IMG/VR virus record: IMGVR_UViG_3300035180_001680
DNA: 64,000 bases
Strand: one strand, 5' to 3'
Origin: a virus
Lineage: Duplodnaviria; Caudoviricetes
In this document: positions 5,931 through 60,485 of the stretch, in pieces
How positions within the stretch are numbered: the stretch's first letter is position 1
Layout of the letters: each line of letters begins with the position of its first letter
The notes under the pieces: model-generated
Told to the model about the DNA's origin: nothing
Databases searched by the model: none
What the model saw: only the letters and a program-made list of their open reading frames with translations
Translations under genes and position numbers: made by a program

Positions 5931-6917
5931 TTATAAGTCCAGATATTGCTTTAACGTCTCAACTCGCGAGGAAGATTCGTTTTCAAGTTCCGCCCAGCGT
6001 AGTATTCTTTTAATACCAGTTGCTTTATCTCTAAATTTCACCAAATGTGAACTTGTTAAGTCGTTGAACAATTTAACAAGTTCACCATTGGTTAAATTAT
6101 TCAGTTTGTTTTCAATTTGTTTAATATCTCTACGGTCTCCAGATTGTTTAGTTGGATACACACTTTTTTCAAAAACATCTTGTTTGTGGGCTGTTACAGA
6201 ATCAACTTCTCCATAAACTTCATATTTCCAACAACGTCCTTTAGTGTTGTTGTAGTCCCTCGGAATAGATACGACATCTGCTGGGTTGATTTTAACTAAA
6301 ACAACTCTTGTATAATTAGGATTACCACCGTAATTTTCGAGGTATGATTGAGAACAGAAGTGTAATCCTTTTGAGCAGGTATTATTTCGATTGTCGTCAA
6401 CTTGGTCCCTTGACATCTCACATATACTTCCTACAGAATTGTCAAAAGTTCCAGAGTATATATCTTTATAATCTAATCCAACTTTTTTGTAAGCAAGAAA
6501 ACAACCATCTTCAGTAATTGGCATATTTCCAGATTCCAAAAAATCATATAATTCATTAACGGCCGTTGAACTTGGATTTTGTAATAAATTTGCTAAAAAC
6601 TCCACCATTGGTTTAACATCAAAACCATCTTTCCACATTTTAAAAATTCGGGAAGTGAGTGTATTGTGAATCGTTTTACCACCATACGTAACGACTTCAT
6701 AGTCAAAATCTATGTAAAGTAAATTATTTTGTTGTTGGTTCATTTGTTTGTCAAACCAAGTTTTAATATTAAGAAGTGATTCAATGTTTTCCCAATCTTG
6801 GTTGCGAATAGCGTTATAGACTTCAGTGAAATTCCGGTGAGTCTGGTCAATTGTGTACGCTTTTGAATCAATCGTAATTGATATAAACGTGTCTGTCATA
6901 ATATAAGGGTAAGCCAT
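5931..6917 (-). CDS. rIIB: rIIB-like protein
   Basis: PITEDGCFLAYKKV, TCSKGLHFCS, VKINPADVVSIP; directly downstream of rIIA. Confidence 0.9.
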   Translation of the reverse strand: MAYPYIMTDTFISITIDSKAYTIDQTHRNFTEVYNAIRNQDWENIESLLNIKTWFDKQMNQQQNNLLYIDFDYEVVTYGGKTIHNTLTSRIFKMWKDGFDVKPMVEFLANLLQNPSSTAVNELYDFLESGNMPITEDGCFLAYKKVGLDYKDIYSGTFDNSVGSICEMSRDQVDDNRNNTCSKGLHFCSQSYLENYGGNPNYTRVVLVKINPADVVSIPRDYNNTKGRCWKYEVYGEVDSVTAHKQDVFEKSVYPTKQSGDRRDIKQIENKLNNLTNGELVKLFNDLTSSHLVKFRDKATGIKRILRWAELENESSSRVETLKQYLDL

Positions 6918-9064: not shown

Positions 9065-9227
9065 TTATTCTCCAATTCTTTAAGTTCTTTATCTTTCAAC
9101 CTTTTGTAGTCAACCTTTTATAGTCAAGCACAACATCTATAGGTAAAGCGTAATATCGTTCTTTGTAGATAATACAACCCCTACCCATTCTCGTTTTTTT
9201 TCGTAATAAAGTCAACTTTTATGTCGT

Positions 9228-9641
9228 TCACACCATTCTCCCAAAAGTAATATGCATATTGTTAATTGGTTTGAATCCAAGTTCTTTTCTATAGTCGTTT
9301 AATTTTTTGCTACGAACAGGAAGTGCGAAGAATTTCCAATGTTGTTCAAATTCAACATTGTATTCGAACGTGATGATTTCACCAGCATGAGCTTTCCACG
9401 TGTTTCGAAATTCAGGCTTAACTGGATACCGTCCATCAAGAACTGTGACATGAGCTTTCCACGCTGGAAGTTGAAGTCGAAGCCCCCACATTCTTTCAAC
9501 CCACCAATTGTAATAATTTGCAATACGGGGGTCCGTTTCGACGATTAACCACCAATCATCGTTTTGGCGAGTTTTCCGAAGTTCTGGACGTTTTGGTTCA
9601 TATACAAGTTTCCCTGTTGCTTTAACCCAATTAGTCGTCAT
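9228..9641 (-). CDS. 2H phosphoesterase family protein
   Basis: Two HxT motifs (AHVTV, MHITF) about 65 aa apart. Confidence 0.7.
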   Translation of the reverse strand: MTTNWVKATGKLVYEPKRPELRKTRQNDDWWLIVETDPRIANYYNWWVERMWGLRLQLPAWKAHVTVLDGRYPVKPEFRNTWKAHAGEIITFEYNVEFEQHWKFFALPVRSKKLNDYRKELGFKPINNMHITFGRMV

Positions 9642-9704
9642 GATGTAAACCCCAAATTTTATATCAAATATAATTATACATCATGAAGACATAAGGGTCA
9701 ACAA

Positions 9705-9917
9705 CTACATTACTAGTTTTTTTGGAAACTTCTTTTTTCGTAATTTTTCCACGACCGCCCAACATGTAATAGCTTGTTCTTCACTTACAGTTACATCATC
9801 AGGCCACAGACCAAATTCATCCATCGCATATAACGCTTCGGAGAGATCACCGACTAACTCGGGGTCATCTTGTTCAAAAAACTTTGATACTTGTTCTCGG
9901 TGTTCTTCATATTCCAT
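9705..9917 (-). CDS. Hypothetical protein
   Basis: Acidic small ORF in operon. Confidence 0.45.
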   Translation of the reverse strand: MEYEEHREQVSKFFEQDDPELVGDLSEALYAMDEFGLWPDDVTVSEEQAITCWAVVEKLRKKKFPKKLVM

Positions 9918-9918
9918 T

Positions 9919-10095
9919 TTATTTCCCTTCATCTAAATCAATACCGTCGTCAATTGAAACAGGTATTTGATATCTGTGGTAACAGATTGGACATTTAATG
10001 ATAACATTAATAGATTGTTCATCTGTTGTATACGTATTAACTGTTAAGTTATTGTTCCTAAAAACAAACGCAGCTCCACAATTAGGACATTTCAT
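9919..10095 (-). CDS. Small zinc-ribbon protein
   Basis: MKCPNCG...KCPICYH, 58 aa, read by hand. Confidence 0.55.
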   Translation of the reverse strand: MKCPNCGAAFVFRNNNLTVNTYTTDEQSINVIIKCPICYHRYQIPVSIDDGIDLDEGK

Positions 10096-10139
10096 TTTAT
10101 TCGGTTAATACTAAATTTGTGTTTTTTTCATTATTCTTC

Positions 10140-10784
10140 CTAATCAATCCCAACGATTTTTTCAATTTCAACCCGAACGCGTTCGGCTGCGACACTGGTG
10201 TATGCTTCGTTGAACATTTCTCGACAAGCCTTTAAAGATTTCGGGTCTGGAGTAAATCCACGGCCAACAAATCTGTAAAAACGGATTACCCTCAAGTAGT
10301 CTTCTTTGATACGGTCTTTGGGTTTTCCAACAAAACGTAACGTTCTCGTTTTAATATCGTCCATTCCCATACCAGTTGGGTCAATAAGCTCCATCGTTTT
10401 GGTGTTAATGTATAATGCGTTTACGGTAAAATCGCGACGGTGAGCATCATCATCGATTGTTCCCAATTCAACTTCCGCGTGGCGACCATCACATACCACA
10501 TCTTTTCGGAAATTGCTGACTTCAACGGTATAACTACTGAAATGGACGTTAAGCACAAAGTGTGCGACACCAGTCAAAGACACTTCAAATCCACCGTCTT
10601 CAAACAGTTCGATTAACCGTTTCATTGGGATATCCGTAACGATGTCGTAATCATTTGGAGTTTTTTCCATCAACAAATCACGAGTCGCTCCCCCCACAAC
10701 GTAATTGTTGTCAGAAAATGCGTTTAGTACTGTAATAATTGGGAATAACTTAATTGGGCACGTTCTTTTAAAATCAATTTTCAT
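10140..10784 (-). CDS. tRNA nucleotidyltransferase (CCA-adding/poly(A) polymerase class II), head domain only
   Basis: VVGGATRDLL, DYDIVT, RRDFTVNAL, EDYLRVIRFYRF; ends at about 214 aa. Confidence 0.9.
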   Translation of the reverse strand: MKIDFKRTCPIKLFPIITVLNAFSDNNYVVGGATRDLLMEKTPNDYDIVTDIPMKRLIELFEDGGFEVSLTGVAHFVLNVHFSSYTVEVSNFRKDVVCDGRHAEVELGTIDDDAHRRDFTVNALYINTKTMELIDPTGMGMDDIKTRTLRFVGKPKDRIKEDYLRVIRFYRFVGRGFTPDPKSLKACREMFNEAYTSVAAERVRVEIEKIVGID

Positions 10785-17160: not shown

Positions 17161-17173
17161 TTTTTAAAGAACA
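17161..17173 (-). promoter_or_regulatory. boxA-like element
   Basis: TGTTCTTTAAAAA between terminator and first tRNA; rrn boxA consensus TGCTCTTTAACA. Confidence 0.65.
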
Positions 17174-17174
17174 T

Positions 17175-17207
17175 AAAAAAAGCCTCGGGAGATTTCTCTG
17201 CCGAGGC
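17175..17207 (-). terminator. Intrinsic terminator of attenuator 1
   Basis: GCCTCGGCAGAG-AAAT-CTCCCGAGGC followed by T7. Confidence 0.9.
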
Positions 17208-17227
17208 CTATTAACTTTTGTTTACTT

Positions 17228-17329
17228 TCAGATGATTAGTTTGATTTCAACAGTCAATGCCTCGGCGTGTGAACGTTTATTATTAACGTTTACATTATTG
17301 ATAAAAATTGGTTTAGTTGAATCGAACAT
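17228..17329 (-). CDS. Leader peptide 1 (Asn/Val/Lys): MFDSTKPIFINNVNVNNKRSHAEALTVEIKLII
   Basis: 33 codons; contains antiterminator GCCGAGGC (17259-17266) complementary to the terminator 5' arm. Confidence 0.85.
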   Translation of the reverse strand: MFDSTKPIFINNVNVNNKRSHAEALTVEIKLII

Positions 17330-17365
17330 TTGTAAATTCTTTAAGTTTGTTAAGTTAGTGTTATA

Positions 17366-17394
17366 AGTATATATGACTTATTTATGAAAGTCAA
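17366..17394 (-). promoter_or_regulatory. tRNA-operon promoter 1 (sigma70 plus embedded late ATAAATA)
   Basis: TTGACT-N17-TATACT with ATAAATA in the spacer; same block at 23326, 36623, 60373. Confidence 0.9.
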
Positions 17395-18538: not shown

Positions 18539-18614
18539 TGGTCCCGTCGGTCAGATTCGAACTGACAAAATAATAGTTTAGGAAACTATTGCCTTTCCCT
18601 TTGGCTTCGACGAG
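18539..18614 (-). tRNA. tRNA-Arg(CCU)
   Basis: ATAGT-TTCCTAA-ACTAT; CCA. Confidence 0.85.
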
Positions 18615-20855: not shown

Positions 20856-20927
20856 TGGTCCCCTTGGCCTGAATCGAACAGGCATAAGGTCGCTTAGAAG
20901 GCGTCCCACCACTCCATTGGCAAGGGG
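20856..20927 (-). tRNA. tRNA-Arg(UCU)
   Basis: GACGC-CTTCTAA-GCGAC; CCA. Confidence 0.75.
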
Positions 20928-21081
20928 GAATAAAAGTGCATTACTTTAAAGTGTTTTAATTAAACGAATATTTATAATTTGGCGGCGCAAAAGTTAATGA
21001 AAACGTGTTACTATATTTATGCACAAATATTTTTCACATCATTTCCAACTAGAGACAACCGGTATATCTATCTTGTGTGCC

Positions 21082-21168
21082 AGGCGGAAGACGGAGGAAT
21101 CGGACCCCACCCCTTGCGGAGCGTTTCGTTTAGCAAACGAACCTGAACACCAGAACAGTTCATCTTCC
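21082..21168 (-). tRNA. tRNA-Ser(GCU)
   Basis: TTCGT-TTGCTAA-ACGAA; long V-arm. Confidence 0.85.
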
Positions 21169-21173
21169 AATAA

Positions 21174-21443
21174 TTATTCTATTTCATCAACCAATTTGTT
21201 TAACTTAATTCTTTGTTTCTTTCGTTCTTTCCACTTCATGTATGCTTCAAAGCGTCTTTTGTTTCCATGCCGAGTCCCTGGTTTATTCAAAAAATCGTAT
21301 AATATGTTTAACAGTTCAGGGTTTTCCAATTCTTCTTTACCTATCCAAAACGGGTGTTCGGTAGAGCAATCTGTATCTTCCCGATATTGACGTATTGCTC
21401 TTTTGGATTTATTCTTCTCTTTGTGTCTTAATGTGTTAGACAT
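21174..21443 (-). CDS. Hypothetical basic protein
   Basis: ORF between tRNAs. Confidence 0.5.
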   Translation of the reverse strand: MSNTLRHKEKNKSKRAIRQYREDTDCSTEHPFWIGKEELENPELLNILYDFLNKPGTRHGNKRRFEAYMKWKERKKQRIKLNKLVDEIE

Positions 21444-21518
21444 AGTTAATAATCTTTAAAAGTTTGTTCTCTCATTGTATTGAATACAAAGACTAATATC
21501 AACATTTGTTTATGATGT

Positions 21519-21590
21519 TGGCCTCCCATGATCGAGTTGAACGATCCAGAATTGATTCGTAGTCAATAAGCTAGTTCCCCTAGATGAGAG
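21519..21590 (-). tRNA. tRNA-Arg(ACG)
   Basis: ATTGA-CTACGAA-TCAAT; CCA. Confidence 0.8.
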
Positions 21591-21598
21591 ATAATTTT

Positions 21599-21678
21599 TG
21601 GCGGGTGTGAAGGGAATTGAACCCTCCTGATTTTCCGAAGTGACAGTCCGGTGACCACGCCATGCAGTCCCCACACCC
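21599..21678 (-). tRNA. tRNA-Asp(GUC)
   Basis: CCGGA-CTGTCAC-TTCGG; CCA. Confidence 0.85.
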
Positions 21679-21773
21679 AAAAGTTAAAACAACACACTAC
21701 TACTGTCAGGTTGTTACACACCCTTTCGTCGTCTTCGGTATAGCAGACCGAATGCTATTTGACGGTGTTGATT

Positions 21774-21858
21774 TGGTACCACCGGTTGGAATCGAACCAA
21801 CTTTGAGGTTTCCCTCCAGGATTATCGGTCCTGTGCCTAACCTATCGGCCACAGTGGT
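21774..21858 (-). tRNA. tRNA-Ile(GAU), long variable arm, C33
   Basis: CAGGA-CCGATAA-TCCTG; V-arm GAGG-GAAA-CCTC. Confidence 0.8.
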
Positions 21859-21864
21859 GTTGTT

Positions 21865-21940
21865 TGGTAGGACCAACCGGGTTCGAACCGATGACAGTCT
21901 GCTTGTAGGGCAGATACTCTACCAACTGAGCTATGGTCCC
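21865..21940 (-). tRNA. tRNA-Val(UAC), C33
   Basis: TCTGC-CCTACAA-GCAGA; CCA. Confidence 0.85.
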
Positions 21941-21964
21941 ATTGAACGATTTCTCGTCCGTTTG

Positions 21965-22342
21965 TTACTTTCTGTGCCTTCGTTTATATAATCGCAATAC
22001 ATCACGCAATTCATTTTTGAAGGAACCATTTTCGCTGTAATATACACAACGACCCAAAGTACCTTTATTCATTCTATATTCCAACGCTTCTACTGACGTT
22101 TCTTCTGGTTGGAACTGTTCCTCCAAACCATAACACGAACAGTGTGATCCATTAACCTCATACAGTATACCGTTTTTCTCATACAACACAAACGCGGATC
22201 CACTATAATCTTCGTACGAATACCAAGCTAATAAGATCTTTTCACCATCATTCAGTTCTATCTGAAATTTGTGTTCAACGTCTTCTACATCACCAAAATT
22301 TCCTAAAAAGTATTGTTTCATCATCATCTCCTTTGTGGTCAA
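21965..22342 (-). CDS. Hypothetical phage protein
   Basis: YEDYSGSAFVL...GSHCSCYGLE. Confidence 0.65.
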   Translation of the reverse strand: MTTKEMMMKQYFLGNFGDVEDVEHKFQIELNDGEKILLAWYSYEDYSGSAFVLYEKNGILYEVNGSHCSCYGLEEQFQPEETSVEALEYRMNKGTLGRCVYYSENGSFKNELRDVLRLYKRRHRK

Positions 22343-22383
22343 AAAATCGTTTAACTCATATTAGAGTTCTGTTATTACAATAC

Positions 22384-22460
22384 TGGTACCCTTGGAGAGA
22401 TTCGAACTCCCGACCTTCTCGTTCGAAGCGAGACAATCTAGTCCACTGATATACAAGGGC
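22384..22460 (-). tRNA. tRNA-Arg(UCG)
   Basis: TCTCG-CTTCGAA-CGAGA; CCA. Confidence 0.88.
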
Positions 22461-22651
22461 ATATCAAATCATTATATCCTCAATTTCTTTCTTAAATCTT
22501 GAATCCTTCTATTATACTCAGAAACGTTAATTTCAGCAACGTTGGAAGACTTTTTTATTAGGGCCATTTTTAATTCTGTTTCTAATCTATTCAACTGCCC
22601 ACGCATTTTTGCTACTTTTTATCTTCTTTGCTCATTTTACTTCGTCCTTTT

Positions 22652-22728
22652 TGGCAACCCCGTCGAGAATCGGACTCGAAAAATCAACAAGGGTCAAAAC
22701 CTTGCGTCATCACTAGATGAACGGGGCA
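22652..22728 (-). tRNA. tRNA-Gln(UUG)
   Basis: CAAGG-TTTTGAC-CCTTG; CCA. Confidence 0.75.
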
Positions 22729-22735
22729 TCTGTTT

Positions 22736-22810
22736 TGGCACCGCCGATGGGACTCGAACCCACCTGAATCTCATAGACAGTGAGATGCTCTCCCCGAGAG
22801 CTACGACGGT
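22736..22810 (-). tRNA. tRNA-Asp(GUC)
   Basis: TCTCA-CTGTCTA-TGAGA; CCA. Confidence 0.85.
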
Positions 22811-22823
22811 ATTATACTTCAAA

Positions 22824-22897
22824 TGGCAAGCCCACCAAGAGTTGAACTTGGACTAGAAGATTCAAAATCTTCTGTGCTACCGCTACACCACGGGCCA
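22824..22897 (-). tRNA. tRNA-Gln(UUG)
   Basis: GAAGA-TTTTGAA-TCTTC; CCA. Confidence 0.88.
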
Positions 22898-22903
22898 ATT
22901 AAA

Positions 22904-22978
22904 GGCTAGGAAGTAGAGAATCGAACTCTATACGAATGCGCTCAGAACGCACCACCTCGACCAATCGGCTTCTTCCCA
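22904..22978 (-). tRNA. tRNA-Gln(CUG)
   Basis: GTGCG-TTCTGAG-CGCAT. Confidence 0.8.
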
Positions 22979-22991
22979 ATATATTTTCAAA

Positions 22992-23004
22992 TTTTTAATG
23001 AACA
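22992..23004 (-). promoter_or_regulatory. boxA-like element
   Basis: TGTTCATTAAAAA after terminator 2. Confidence 0.6.
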
Positions 23005-23015
23005 GTTGTAAAACG

Positions 23016-23048
23016 AAAAACCCAGTCTCTTTTGGAAACTGGGTTTTT
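23016..23048 (-). terminator. Intrinsic terminator of attenuator 2
   Basis: AACCCAGTTTC-CAAAA-GAGACTGGGTT followed by a T-run. Confidence 0.9.
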
Positions 23049-23071
23049 CTTTTTAAGAATTTAGCTTTATG

Positions 23072-23167
23072 CTATACCCAGCCTCCAGACATAATAATAT
23101 CACTGTCGCGACGTACTTGGCGTCGGCGAATGATACTAATACTCTGTTGTTGTCTGGTTACGAACAT
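23072..23167 (-). CDS. Leader peptide 2 (Arg/Gln/Ile/Ser/Asp/Val): MFVTRQQQSISIIRRRQVRRDSDIIMSGGWV
   Basis: 31 codons, RBS AAGGAG; CTGGGT (23076-23081) can pair with terminator 5' arm ACCCAG. Confidence 0.9.
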   Translation of the reverse strand: MFVTRQQQSISIIRRRQVRRDSDIIMSGGWV

Positions 23168-23325
23168 TTGTAAAGCTCCTTAAATTAAATGGTGTTTACT
23201 ACTTTATCGTCTGCTTAATATACGCTTCTACGCACCCACATATTTCTATGTTTTGTTAGTACCGGGACGTCCTAGCTTTCAACACCTAACTATTTAGTTA
23301 AGCACTTTGCTCAACTGTTGATACA

Positions 23326-23354
23326 AGTATATATGACTTATTTATAAAAGTCAA
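23326..23354 (-). promoter_or_regulatory. tRNA-operon promoter 2
   Basis: TTGACT-TTTATAAATAAGTCATA-TATACT. Confidence 0.9.
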
Positions 23355-23459
23355 CATTTATTTATCAATCTCAAAAACACATCTGGTGCTTGGAACATCA
23401 TATACGTCGTTGACATCTTATGTCTCCTTAAAAGATATAGTATTTTTTAAACTAACGAT

Positions 23460-46995: not shown

Positions 46996-48498
46996 TTAAA
47001 TTGTAACGAGTTGATAACGTTCACTGTTAATAACATCAAGCATCAAATCATAAGCAGACAAAAATTCTCCACCTATTGTATGCTTAAAGATAGACGGACT
47101 ACATCCACTAACCATTTGAAAACCACGCTCATCCATACTCATTGGAAACTGTTGGTTCTGAGCATCAACATTCCAAAACACCAAATTGGGCATTGTATAT
47201 CCACACTCACCAAATTCTTTAGAAATTGTTTGGAATAATTTTTCGTCAACCATACCCCGACCTTGATGCTCATAAGAATATCTAGCGTTGCTTGTAGCGG
47301 CATCAAATTCCATGTCAGAAATGATATACAACTTCTGTGGTAATTCAGATTGTGCTAACTTGTTTTGTTTGGCAACAGTAAGAATCAAACGGAACACAGC
47401 TTGAATATCTGTATTCATTTCCCATGCAGAACTATTCATATTGGCTATTTTTTCAACAAGGTCAGCTCCCTGAATTTTAAGTAGTTGAGGTGTAGAGCTA
47501 AAAGTAATGAACTTGTTATGATAAGCTTCACAAGTGTTACGTTCAGCCAAATACATTCCAACCGAAATGGCAACTTCCAATGGAAGACCAGCCATAGAAC
47601 CAGACACATCAACTACAGCAAGAGCATTTTCTTGTTTATCTCCAATATAGTTTGGAAGAGCGTCCCACAACGCATCCATGAGTTGGCGTTCGTGTTGTGG
47701 TGTGTTCCTGCCCATCGTAAATGCTTTGCGGACGATTTCATATGGAAAAAGAACACTCGCATTGATTTTCTTTTCGCCAGTCTTTAAAGAATCCAAGAAT
47801 TTCTTACGGCGTTCAGCATCGTGCGCGAAAAAAGCTTTCCCATATAACAAGTTAGCTTGAGAGGGAACGGCACTGTATTCAATACTATCCCACTGATTGG
47901 CAGACACCAACCGTTCAACAATGTTAATTTTCTTACGAAGAGTGCTCAACATCAAGCGATATGCTTTGGATCTTAATTTAAGACCCTTACGAGTTTTTGT
48001 TGCAAGTCGTTTCGTTTCTTTTGAAGAAGCGTTTTCACTTTTCAACCATTTTGCAAGCAACGAGGGATGTTCAGATGCCACGTCTTCGGTAATCTGTGTA
48101 AAGATTAGTGCAATCGCATCTGTTTCAAGTTCTGTATCAAATAACACATACAAATCATCCCAACGTCCAAAGTATGGAATAAGTTTAATGTTTTTACGGA
48201 CAGCGTCAGGGTTAACGTTAATCAACCACTTTAATTGCTTTCTAAACGTATCACGTTCACCTTGACCACCACGAGCGTCCCTGAAATAGAACATAGCACG
48301 AGTGGCTAACAATGCATTTTCTGCATAAGCTTTTGAAAACAAATGAAGAATTTCATCATCATCACGATTGCGGAGTGCACCACCCTGTGCAAACAAATCC
48401 AACATAGCTGATTTGGTTGTATCAAATGCAACAGCACCATTTTCCGTGTGTGCTACATTGGTTGTAATAGAAAGGGCATCCACAAATTCTTTGCTCAC
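46996..48498 (-). CDS. TROVE/Ro60-like plus vWA protein (DUF2828-like)
   Basis: TENGA, RDARGGQGER, GRWDDL, AKWL, VVDVSGSM (MIDAS), SDMEFD. Confidence 0.8.
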   Translation of the reverse strand: MSKEFVDALSITTNVAHTENGAVAFDTTKSAMLDLFAQGGALRNRDDDEILHLFSKAYAENALLATRAMFYFRDARGGQGERDTFRKQLKWLINVNPDAVRKNIKLIPYFGRWDDLYVLFDTELETDAIALIFTQITEDVASEHPSLLAKWLKSENASSKETKRLATKTRKGLKLRSKAYRLMLSTLRKKINIVERLVSANQWDSIEYSAVPSQANLLYGKAFFAHDAERRKKFLDSLKTGEKKINASVLFPYEIVRKAFTMGRNTPQHERQLMDALWDALPNYIGDKQENALAVVDVSGSMAGLPLEVAISVGMYLAERNTCEAYHNKFITFSSTPQLLKIQGADLVEKIANMNSSAWEMNTDIQAVFRLILTVAKQNKLAQSELPQKLYIISDMEFDAATSNARYSYEHQGRGMVDEKLFQTISKEFGECGYTMPNLVFWNVDAQNQQFPMSMDERGFQMVSGCSPSIFKHTIGGEFLSAYDLMLDVINSERYQLVTI

Positions 48499-49449: not shown

Positions 49450-50370
49450 TTTACTTTGTATAAGGTTGAGATTAAACCTATACTATTGATACCTTCGAGA
49501 CATTATCTCATCACCTGCTACAGCTAGAGTTCTTCTCTTATCCACATAATCAGCTTTCGCACAACTATGTCTATCAACATGACTGCATTTTTTAAGTGGT
49601 TGCTTTTCCACCAACATGTAAAGCTACTCGATTATCTGTCTACCGCCAACCTTGCGAGCTGTACAAGAGCGCTAACTCTCTGCGTGCGACTTTCTTTCAA
49701 CATCCTCGACCTTGCGAGTTTTGGACGCCTTCATTACCTTGCGGCTGAAGGATTAAGCCATTTTCACTTTACACTGGAAACGTCTTTGCGTTTTATGTAA
49801 TATAATCCAAATTTATATGGGCTGTTAACCCTAACATTGTTAAACCTACCAAGAAGTGCGTTTCCAGTGGATTTCATACCTTTTGAGTATAAAAATACCA
49901 CACTCCTCATGTTTTTCATCTGCCGACTACTCAACCAGTTTTCAGGAATCGTGACACCCTATTACAGGTACCAAAACCCCCTCAACTTGCACAACAGCCC
50001 TTACTTGCGGGTTCGGACCACTGTACTACCCTTTACCTTTTGAGATGGCTAGTTTGTGTAGGCGTGAGGTCGGCACAACCCGTTACTCTCCAAATGCCCA
50101 AGTTCCCTGCAGAGCAGGCTTGTAAACATTCGTTCTTTCCACACCCCTAACTTCCCTCATATGACTACCGTTGGCGATAATCAGCTCCTTTCGGAGTAGG
50201 TCAGGCTTGCTTGTTTGTACCCCTTACAGGGCGCGGTAGTTGTAGGACCTACCGCTTTCACAACATCGCTGTTGGTTACTTTGCACAAGCGCGTAATTCT
50301 TTATCTTTTAAATTGTTTCTGATGAAACGTTCTGAATTCACAGAACTAATTAAAAGAGTGACTTTCTTAA
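49450..50370 (-). ncRNA. Giant structured ncRNA, GOLLD/ROOL-like
   Basis: About 900 nt without a credible ORF; many GCAA/GAAA-capped hairpins on the minus strand; downstream of a tRNA; TTGACT promoter near 50410. Confidence 0.6.
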
Positions 50371-50906: not shown

Positions 50907-50981
50907 CGGTGCCCAATGTCGGAATCGAACCGACGGTCAAGTGTTTTAGAAGCACCTGCTTTACCATTAAGCCAATTGAGC
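50907..50981 (-). tRNA. Amber suppressor candidate tRNA(CUA)
   Basis: GGTGC-TTCTAAA-ACACT in canonical register. Confidence 0.65.
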
Positions 50982-57730: not shown

Positions 57731-57853
57731 TGGTTGTTGTGGTAGGACTCGAACCTACACAAGCTGCTGGAAGGGTTACTATTTTAGTCTGTCTTCACAG
57801 AGCTCCCCACTATGATTCCACCGCCGGGGTATACCAATCCCCCTCACACAACA
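57731..57853 (-). ncRNA. tRNA-scaffold RNA with a branched insertion replacing the anticodon loop
   Basis: Intact acceptor, D and T arms and CCA; about 50 extra nt. Confidence 0.6.
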
Positions 57854-60035: not shown

Positions 60036-60154
60036 TGGTGGGCATGGTAGGAATCGAACCTACTCACCACGAGGGAACGGATTTAGTCGAGAACACTGGA
60101 AAACCAATGCTCTCTAGTCAGTCCGCCGCGACTCTCCAACTTCGCCGCATGCCC
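60036..60154 (-). tRNA. tRNA-Tyr with a 33-nt hairpin insertion in the anticodon
   Basis: GCGGA-CTG[33 nt]TAAA-TCCGT; Tyr-type body; CCA. Confidence 0.75.
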
Positions 60155-60181: not shown

Positions 60182-60190
60182 GTTTACAAC

Positions 60191-60222
60191 AAAAAAGCCT
60201 GGGTCTTTCGAGCCAGGCTTTC
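60191..60222 (-). terminator. Intrinsic terminator of attenuator 4
   Basis: AGCCTGGCTC-GAAA-GACCCAGGCT followed by a T-run. Confidence 0.9.
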
Positions 60223-60240
60223 TTTTGGGATTTTTTCTCT

Positions 60241-60336
60241 TTACATCTTGGTAATTCCCCAAACGGCGACCTGGCTCTTATCCAATATGGATAAAGACCC
60301 GAGTGATAGACAATAACCTAATCCGTTTGTGTTCAT
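60241..60336 (-). CDS. Leader peptide 4 (Leu/Ser/Gly/Tyr/Cys/Ile-AUA): MNTNGLGYCLSLGSLSILDKSQVAVWGITKM
   Basis: 31 codons, RBS AAGGA; GAGCCAGG (60270-60277) is an exact complement of terminator 5' arm CCTGGCTC. Confidence 0.9.
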   Translation of the reverse strand: MNTNGLGYCLSLGSLSILDKSQVAVWGITKM

Positions 60337-60372
60337 TTTGTAAATCCTTTAAGTAATTAATTCAGTGTTATA

Positions 60373-60401
60373 AGTATATATGACTTATTTATAAAAGTCA
60401 A
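60373..60401 (-). promoter_or_regulatory. tRNA-operon promoter 4
   Basis: TTGACT-TTTATAAATAAGTCATA-TATACT. Confidence 0.9.
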
Positions 60402-60485
60402 CGAATCATTCTATTCCATCAGAAATACCACCAACAAATTTCTGACATTCCGTGTTATTATCGATTAATTGTTCAATGATATCAT

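Follow-up and report, generated by a model that had tools for sequence, protein, structure and literature searches.

A putative multivalent leader-peptide attenuator upstream of a tRNA gene array in a large uncultured phage

Introduction

On the minus strand of a metagenomic virus sequence, a near-consensus sigma-70 promoter is separated from the 11–12 tRNA genes behind it by a 31-codon ORF with its ribosome-binding site (AAGGAG), then by a strong intrinsic terminator and finally by a boxA-like box. The question raised by this order is what a small ORF and a terminator are doing between a promoter and a set of tRNA genes. The window analysed here is a stretch of 64,000 nucleotides, corresponding to bases 33549–97548 (minus strand) of an IMG/VR virus record of 178,796 bp. 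The record has a completeness of ~52% (CheckV) and a GC content of ~36%; it carries ~41–47 tRNA genes, all in one strand; and the sequencing runs containing it are DNA only, from sediment and microbial-mat metagenomes. Record coordinates outside the window are labelled G000, and G001 is the label of a 56-kb IMG/VR contig from a relative.

A preliminary description of positions 23016–23354, a span that reaches from the promoter to the terminator stem (with the U-tract continuing to 23010), read this locus as a transcription attenuator. The reading is supported here, as all its defining sequence features are present and statistically unusual, and both the sister cassettes of the window and G001 agree with it. 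We propose that this large, uncultured phage probably makes its tRNA set only when ribosomes read the codons of the leader slowly.

Organization of the cassette

The features of the locus, the second of four similar cassettes in the window, are collected in Table 1.

Table 1. Features of cassette 2, its tRNA array and the sister cassettes (window coordinates)
Feature	Position	Strand	Basis or remark
Sigma-70-type promoter, TTGACT-17-TATACT	23326..23354	-	Promoter scan and direct reading
Extra 5′-UTR segment, ~111-nt insertion	23192..23302	-	Alignment; without counterpart in the other three cassettes and the G001 homologue
Shine-Dalgarno AAGGAG, 8 nt ahead of ATG	23176..23181	-	Direct reading
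Leader ORF, 31 codons and TAG stop, MFVTRQQQSISIIRRRQVRRDSDIIMSGGWV	23072..23167	-	ORF reading
Control run, codons 5–25 (Arg, Gln, Ser-AGT, Ile-ATY, Val-GTA, Asp), 21 consecutive array-read codons	23093..23155	-	Strict wobble rules
Hairpin within the control run, -18.2 kcal/mol, z -4.7	23091..23142	-	Folding; kept in G001
Antiterminator 5′ strand UGGAGGCUGGGU, codons 27–31, ending 1 nt before the stop codon	23076..23087	-	Folding
Antiterminator 3′ strand ACCCAGUUUCCA, core of the terminator 5′ arm and first two loop bases	23033..23044	-	Folding
Intrinsic terminator, 15-bp stem (23049–23035 with 23029–23015), loop CAAAA, U-rich tail	23010..23049	-	Folding, stem -20.8 kcal/mol
boxA-like box TGTTCATTAAAAA, between terminator and first tRNA	22992..23004	-	Direct reading
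Array 2: Gln-CUG, Gln-UUG, Asp, Gln-UUG, Arg-UCG, Val-UAC, Ile-GAU, Asp, Arg-ACG, Ser-GCU, Arg-UCU	20856..22978	-	ARAGORN, Rfam
Arg-CCU, 2.2 kb beyond the rest of array 2	18539–18614	-	ARAGORN default
Sister cassette 1, before Val/Asn/Lys array	17172–17394	-	Same 30-nt block
Sister cassette 3, before Pro/Ala/Glu/Phe/Thr/His/Trp/Met array	36420–36653	-	Same 30-nt block
Sister cassette 4, before Tyr/Cys/Leu/Gly/Ser/Ile-UAU array	60186–60402	-	Same 30-nt block

A 30-nt block, shared by the four cassettes with few or no differences, contains the promoter; the whole record has these four copies and none elsewhere, and the block is also present in G001. Conservation of the block (23325–23355 and the three other copies) reaches far past the -35 and -10 hexamers, and an inverted repeat, TGACTT-N8-AAGTCA, is located between them. 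These properties could reflect an operator for a regulator, or be the sign of a recent duplication.

Transcription would start near 23319, and the 5′ UTR is ~150 nt long. The ~111-nt insertion found in it is peculiar to cassette 2, and metagenome contigs of a relative skip positions 23171–23324, a span that includes this insertion. The inserted segment folds modestly (z -2.2) and presented neither an Rfam match nor a further copy within the record. A mini-ORF of 8 codons (MWVRRSVY) is contained in it, with no clear ribosome-binding site ahead.

The leader of cassette 2 ends with TAG, and the other six leaders end with TAA or TGA. TAG is the rarest stop of the long ORFs (18/188), and a tRNA with the anticodon CUA, of the amber suppressor type, is encoded at 50908–50981 on the minus strand. 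A recoding of TAG in this genome was checked and found no support. As a speculation, suppression of TAG at this leader would take ribosomes through the terminator.

The tRNA genes of array 2 have small ORFs interspersed among them, and the first one, Gln-CUG, begins at 22978. The tRNA list given in the preliminary description is correct: Gln-CUG, Gln-UUG, the two Asp, Arg-UCG, Arg-ACG, Arg-UCU, Arg-CCU, Val-UAC and Ile-GAU are detected at ARAGORN defaults, and the second Gln-UUG (22652–22728) and Ser-GCU (21083–21168) at relaxed thresholds only. Ser-GCU has an Rfam tRNA-clan match, most of the other tRNAs of the array are supported by Rfam, and the two genes of relaxed detection have counterparts in G001, which carries the same tRNA species as array 2. 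Promoter-like sites occur within the array, for example at 21502, and could allow a bypass of the switch. A 125-aa ORF is also encoded within the array, and its relatives have no tRNAs nearby.

Other unusual RNA genes were observed in the window. Several tRNA-like genes on the minus strand (60036–60154, 57731–57853 and 31259–31374) are modelled by ARAGORN only with insertions of 33–42 nt in the anticodon loop, among them the Tyr-GUA directly 3′ of cassette 4; several other tRNAs are 80–90 nt long. Such genes may contain introns or encode phage tRNAs of some other unusual kind. In addition, a full-length GOLLD RNA (Rfam RF02032, 198.8 bits) lies amid the tRNA genes at 49463–49908, minus strand, and a TROVE-like DUF2828/DUF7788 protein is encoded near it, at 46996–48498.

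Codon content of the leader

The codons quoted in the preliminary description are exactly codons 3–25 of the ORF at 23167..23072 (minus strand). Under strict wobble rules 22 of those 23 codons are decoded by array 2, as had been claimed, the exception being ACC.

No other stretch of array-read codons in the 178.8-kb record, searched in six frames (357,588 codon positions), is as long as the 21 consecutive ones of the control run; the runner-up has 9. The codon set of array 2 makes up 0.22 of the six-frame codons and 0.23 of the codons in long ORFs. The expectation for a 21-codon run is ~5e-14 per position, a value to be read with the fact that the control run is also a hairpin, so that its 21 codons are not fully independent; with the run count halved, the run is still very unlikely by chance. 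An origin of the run by chance is excluded.

The match extends to the level of isoacceptors. Those for Ser, Ile and Val are split between the arrays of this phage, and the 10 codons of the run for these amino acids are AGT (three), ATT or ATC (five) and GTA (two). All 10 use the isoacceptor of array 2 (P ~7e-4, computed from the phage's own codon usage), which bears out the earlier claim of an isoacceptor-level match and its two particulars, that the three Ser codons of the run are all AGT and that Val is GTA. ACC (Thr) adjoins the run although array 2 is without a Thr tRNA, and AGG, the codon of Arg-CCU, is absent from the leader run.

Terminator and antiterminator

A pairing of CTGGGT at the leader stop with ACCCAG in the terminator arm had been noted before. 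This pairing is real but was understated, since the helix comprises 12 bp (23087–23076 with 23044–23033). The antiterminator duplex reaches -21.3 kcal/mol, against -7.2 ± 1.9 kcal/mol for 1000 dinucleotide shuffles of the upstream RNA, none of which attains its value (0/1000). The corresponding duplexes of cassettes 1 and 4 and of the G001 homologue of cassette 2 are significant as well; that of cassette 3 is no better than its shuffles.

The terminator is located 32 nt ahead of the first tRNA, and its end lies 59 nt from the leader stop codon. A simple terminator scan did not list it, apparently due to the extension of its stem through A/U pairs. In all four metagenome runs there are contigs of high depth whose match is confined to the terminator hairpin (23016–23052), with a loop shorter by 7 nt; they probably represent an unrelated element with a similar terminator.

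The effect of the ribosome position was followed in a nascent-RNA model, in which the transcript ends before the terminator 3′ arm and the ribosome footprint is 28 nt. With the ribosomal A site at codons 2–26, ~0.8 of the terminator 5′ arm is paired with the end of the leader; with the A site at codons 27 to stop, this pairing drops to 0.03–0.38. In the model, then, the antiterminator strand is masked only by a ribosome at codons 27 to stop. At equilibrium the folding model of the full leader always favours the terminator, and for this reason the mechanism depends on an assumed kinetic competition, like the classical cases. In contrast to trp, cassette 2 has no strong predicted protector helix, and the control-run hairpin leaves the antiterminator strand unsequestered in the model, so that an untranslated leader is predicted to read through. 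Sister cassette 3 does show a protector. The control-run hairpin, for its part, may be a pause hairpin for RNA polymerase, a candidate role suggested by the folding, in which it would be melted by the translating ribosome.

Beyond the terminator, the box TGTTCATTAAAAA is identical in 10 of 13 positions to TGCTCTTTAACAA, which we take to be the rrn boxA. Boxes of this kind (TGTTCATTAAAAA, TGTTCTTTAAAAA, CGCTCTTTAAAAA and similar) occupy the same place in seven cassettes, including cassettes 1, 3 and 4 and those of G001. They suggest rrn-style processive antitermination on the arrays. The place after the terminator in every cassette is the one expected from the rrn-type boxA/Nus system, where processive antitermination acts on a long untranslated transcript; in this phage the likeness is one of sequence, and the box is a candidate site.

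Sister cassettes

Downstream of each of the four copies of the promoter block come a ribosome-binding site, an ORF of 31–33 codons and a terminator, and then the tRNA array, preceded by a boxA-like box. Every leader was compared with every array by strict wobble rules, counting the codons after the ATG. Leader 1 (32 codons) has 10 codons read by array 1, 8 by array 2, 9 by array 3 and 4 by array 4; for leader 2 (30 codons) the counts are 0, 23, 4 and 3; for leader 3 (31 codons), 2, 2, 20 and 3; and for leader 4 (30 codons), 6, 4, 4 and 15. The table is strongly diagonal, that is, the sister leaders fit their own arrays and not each other's. The own-array count of leader 3 rises to 24/31, with a run of 20, if a U34 anticodon reads the whole four-codon family box, and the own-array run of leader 4 has 11 to 14 codons. 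Leader 1 presents the weakest match, with the core NNVNVNNK ahead of Val, Asn and three Lys tRNAs.

The cassette does not accompany every tRNA gene of the record. A fifth array (Met, Gly, Gly, Pro, Thr; G000 9198–10763, outside the window) has ordinary ORFs upstream and no leader cassette, and none was found for the isolated tRNAs Gly-GCC, Met and Ser-UGA.

Comparison with a relative and with strain variants

The contig G001 has homologues of cassettes 2, 3 and 4. It was the sole relative recovered from IMG/VR with a strict promoter pattern; the same pattern gave no match in metagenome contigs, and a pattern made from the conserved RQVRRDSD codons found nothing beyond G001. The Gln tRNAs of G001 and of this phage have diverged too far from each other to seed pattern searches.

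With the covariation resting on this one close relative, the terminator stem of cassette 2 changes from CCCAG/CUGGG to CCCCGG/CCGGGG in G001, and the antiterminator from CUGGG to CCGGG. One position is thereby altered in each of the three strands, in a compensatory manner, and the pairing is kept. In cassette 4 a G-C to A-U exchange is also of the compensatory kind. G001 also maintains the control-run hairpin, whose apical stem shows compensatory changes.

The five amino-acid differences between the two control runs are all in-set, that is, both residues are read by the array: Ser-AGT/Gln, Ser-AGT/Ile, Ile/Asp, Arg/Gln and Ile/Ser-AGT. These swaps are chemically radical and yet stay in the set, and the synonymous changes retain the same tRNA. 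Strain variants from two other metagenomes show the same behaviour, with codon 18 changed from GTA to GTG and codon 15 from CGA to CAA (Arg to Gln), both in-set. In G001 the array includes Ser-UGA in addition, and the control run continues into a TCG codon, a single case that is suggestive.

Similar cassettes in other phages

A second family of cassettes, with a leader and an antiterminator/terminator before long tRNA arrays, surfaced by accident in a loose promoter scan of IMG/VR. It was observed in contigs L121 (13260–13700), L020, L069, L072, L074, L053 and L096; L077, L098 and L035; and L040. In this family the start codon is only ~6 nt after the -10 box, and behind the terminator come extra promoters, in tandem, and a boxA-like box. 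The leaders contain YELAYESD or DLYAYERED, and the arrays begin with Glu-Tyr-Asp-Leu or Leu-Leu-Glu-Asp-Tyr; the match between leader and array is partial and less clear. The leader of L040 has QHQH ahead of a tRNA-His.

Another case is LR745206.1 (L138), a 635-kb uncultured phage, in which a 31-codon ORF beginning with MTTNSTHKNFSKSHKWFSNQ and a terminator (6061–6217) stand directly before an array of His, Phe, His, Phe, Trp, four Lys, Arg and Ser tRNAs. The leader contains HKNFSKSHKWFS; its GTTCGG and the terminator arm CCGAAC are complementary. In the tRNA region of phage T5, small ORFs are present between the tRNAs, with no leader-to-array match.

Proposed mechanism and alternative explanations

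On the grounds of sequence and folding models, we consider it likely that cassette 2 acts as a multivalent transcription attenuator of the leader-peptide type, controlling the phage tRNA array and making transcription of the tRNAs respond to demand. Translation of the leader, the kinetic competition, the direction of regulation and the regulated read-through are parts of this proposal that we infer. Transcription would begin at the strong sigma-70-type promoter, and a ribosome would load on AAGGAG and translate the 31-codon leader, whose codons 5–25 would be read by the tRNAs of the array that follows (Gln, Arg, Ser-GCU, Ile-GAU, Val-UAC and Asp). When the aminoacyl-tRNAs are plentiful, the ribosome would reach codons 27 to stop and cover UGGAGGCUGGGU, the terminator would form, and transcription would end at ~23010. 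When any tRNA of the array is scarce, the ribosome would stall in the run and leave UGGAGGCUGGGU free to pair with the terminator 5′ arm. With the antiterminator formed, the polymerase would read through, pass the boxA-like site and transcribe the tRNA genes. The net effect would be a negative feedback, in which the array is made when its own codons are decoded slowly.

The same parts could be imagined to work without regard to codons. In a general switch of translation status, any slowing or loss of translation, such as host shut-off or ribosome shortage, would free the antiterminator, with codon content being secondary. The read-through that the model predicts without any ribosome agrees with this, as does the use of one promoter block and one design for four arrays. 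It leaves unexplained why each of the four leaders is written in the codons of its own array, why the choices are made at the level of isoacceptors, and why the substitutions between relatives stay in the set, and we judge it unlikely. Somewhat less probable still is an untranslated RNA element, a hairpin for pausing, processing or protein binding followed by a terminator, in which the ORF and its codon bias are by-products of the palindrome. The control run does fold as a significant and conserved hairpin. Against this stand the strong AAGGAG at the correct spacing, a frame open in both genomes despite many changes, and a stop codon placed exactly beside the antiterminator; moreover, the three sister leaders differ in sequence while each fits its own array, and a palindrome alone would not pick AGT over TCN.

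An ordinary gene for a small phage protein, followed by an ordinary terminator and resembling the array by chance, has in its favour that small ORFs are frequent in phage tRNA regions, as in T5, whose inter-tRNA ORFs are without such a pattern. The run-length statistic, the fourfold replication and the radical but in-set amino-acid swaps all oppose chance. Searches of INPHARED at the DNA level and by tblastn with the leader peptide, the cassette and the second-family leader returned no match, leaving the supposed protein without a homologue there. A terminator between a dedicated promoter and its genes would also be senseless without a switch. We find this explanation hardly credible, the least probable of those considered.

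Returning to the attenuator, the four cassettes taken together may have a wider role, which we put forward tentatively and with well under even confidence: a four-channel, on-demand tRNA homeostat and counter-defence sensor, in which each leader detects the loss of particular host tRNAs and switches on only the array that replaces them. Its triggers would be anticodon nucleases, phage-induced decay of host tRNAs, or a mismatch between the host tRNA pool and the codon usage of the phage.

Comparison with known systems

The enterobacterial attenuators (thrL, ilvL of ilvGMEDA, trpL, hisL, leuL and pheL) have the same layout, from the promoter and a short leader ORF with its run of regulatory codons to the mutually exclusive antiterminator and terminator helices, between which the position of a ribosome decides. 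As in the phage leader, several amino acids are sensed at once by the ilv and thr attenuators, and the phage spacing of 59 nt between leader stop and terminator end falls within the range usual for them. The differences are in the target and the breadth of sampling: the enterobacterial systems regulate biosynthetic enzymes, whereas the phage cassette precedes 11–12 tRNA genes and small ORFs, and its leader samples six amino acids and about ten anticodons with isoacceptor-specific codon choice. The Rfam model Thr_leader (RF00506) scores 27.1 bits on the terminator/antiterminator part, below its gathering score of 55, and there is no sequence homology of cassette 2 to Thr_leader or the other enterobacterial attenuators at this level (27 bits versus 55).

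The pheST operon of E. coli, with its leader pheM, is controlled by a leader-peptide attenuator in front of aminoacyl-tRNA synthetase genes and senses one amino acid. Like the phage cassette, it controls a component of the translation apparatus through the supply of charged tRNA for the leader codons; there the component is a synthetase and one amino acid is sensed, whereas here it is the tRNA genes, and many species are sensed. T-box riboswitches bind uncharged tRNA directly via a specifier codon and do not need translation. They too switch between terminator and antiterminator according to the state of a specific tRNA, while in the phage cassette the ribosome would be the sensor. Positions 22950–23420 presented no T-box features and no covariance-model match at E up to 1.

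A full-text search of the literature for leader-peptide attenuation of tRNA genes found no earlier account of it. To our knowledge, bacterial tRNA genes are controlled at their promoters, by growth rate and the stringent response, and not by attenuation. The mechanism itself is already known from trp, thr, ilv and pheST; what is new is the target, tRNA genes, and the matching of codons to many isoacceptors. Since here the tRNA genes themselves would be under a trp/ilv-type switch, the product would directly relieve the signal, which is the speed of decoding.

Conclusions

If the proposal is true, it would explain how large phages can carry dozens of tRNA genes without wasteful expression, and why they arrange them in arrays according to amino acid. 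It also suggests a phage answer to host defences that target tRNAs, or to a mismatched host tRNA pool. The leaders would in addition offer synthetic biology compact, codon-specific sensors of decoding capacity. Should the more tentative homeostat also hold, the tRNA supply of the phage would be self-tuning across hosts. As the design is found in distant phages too, it probably reflects a rule of phage tRNA biology that is general and has been overlooked.
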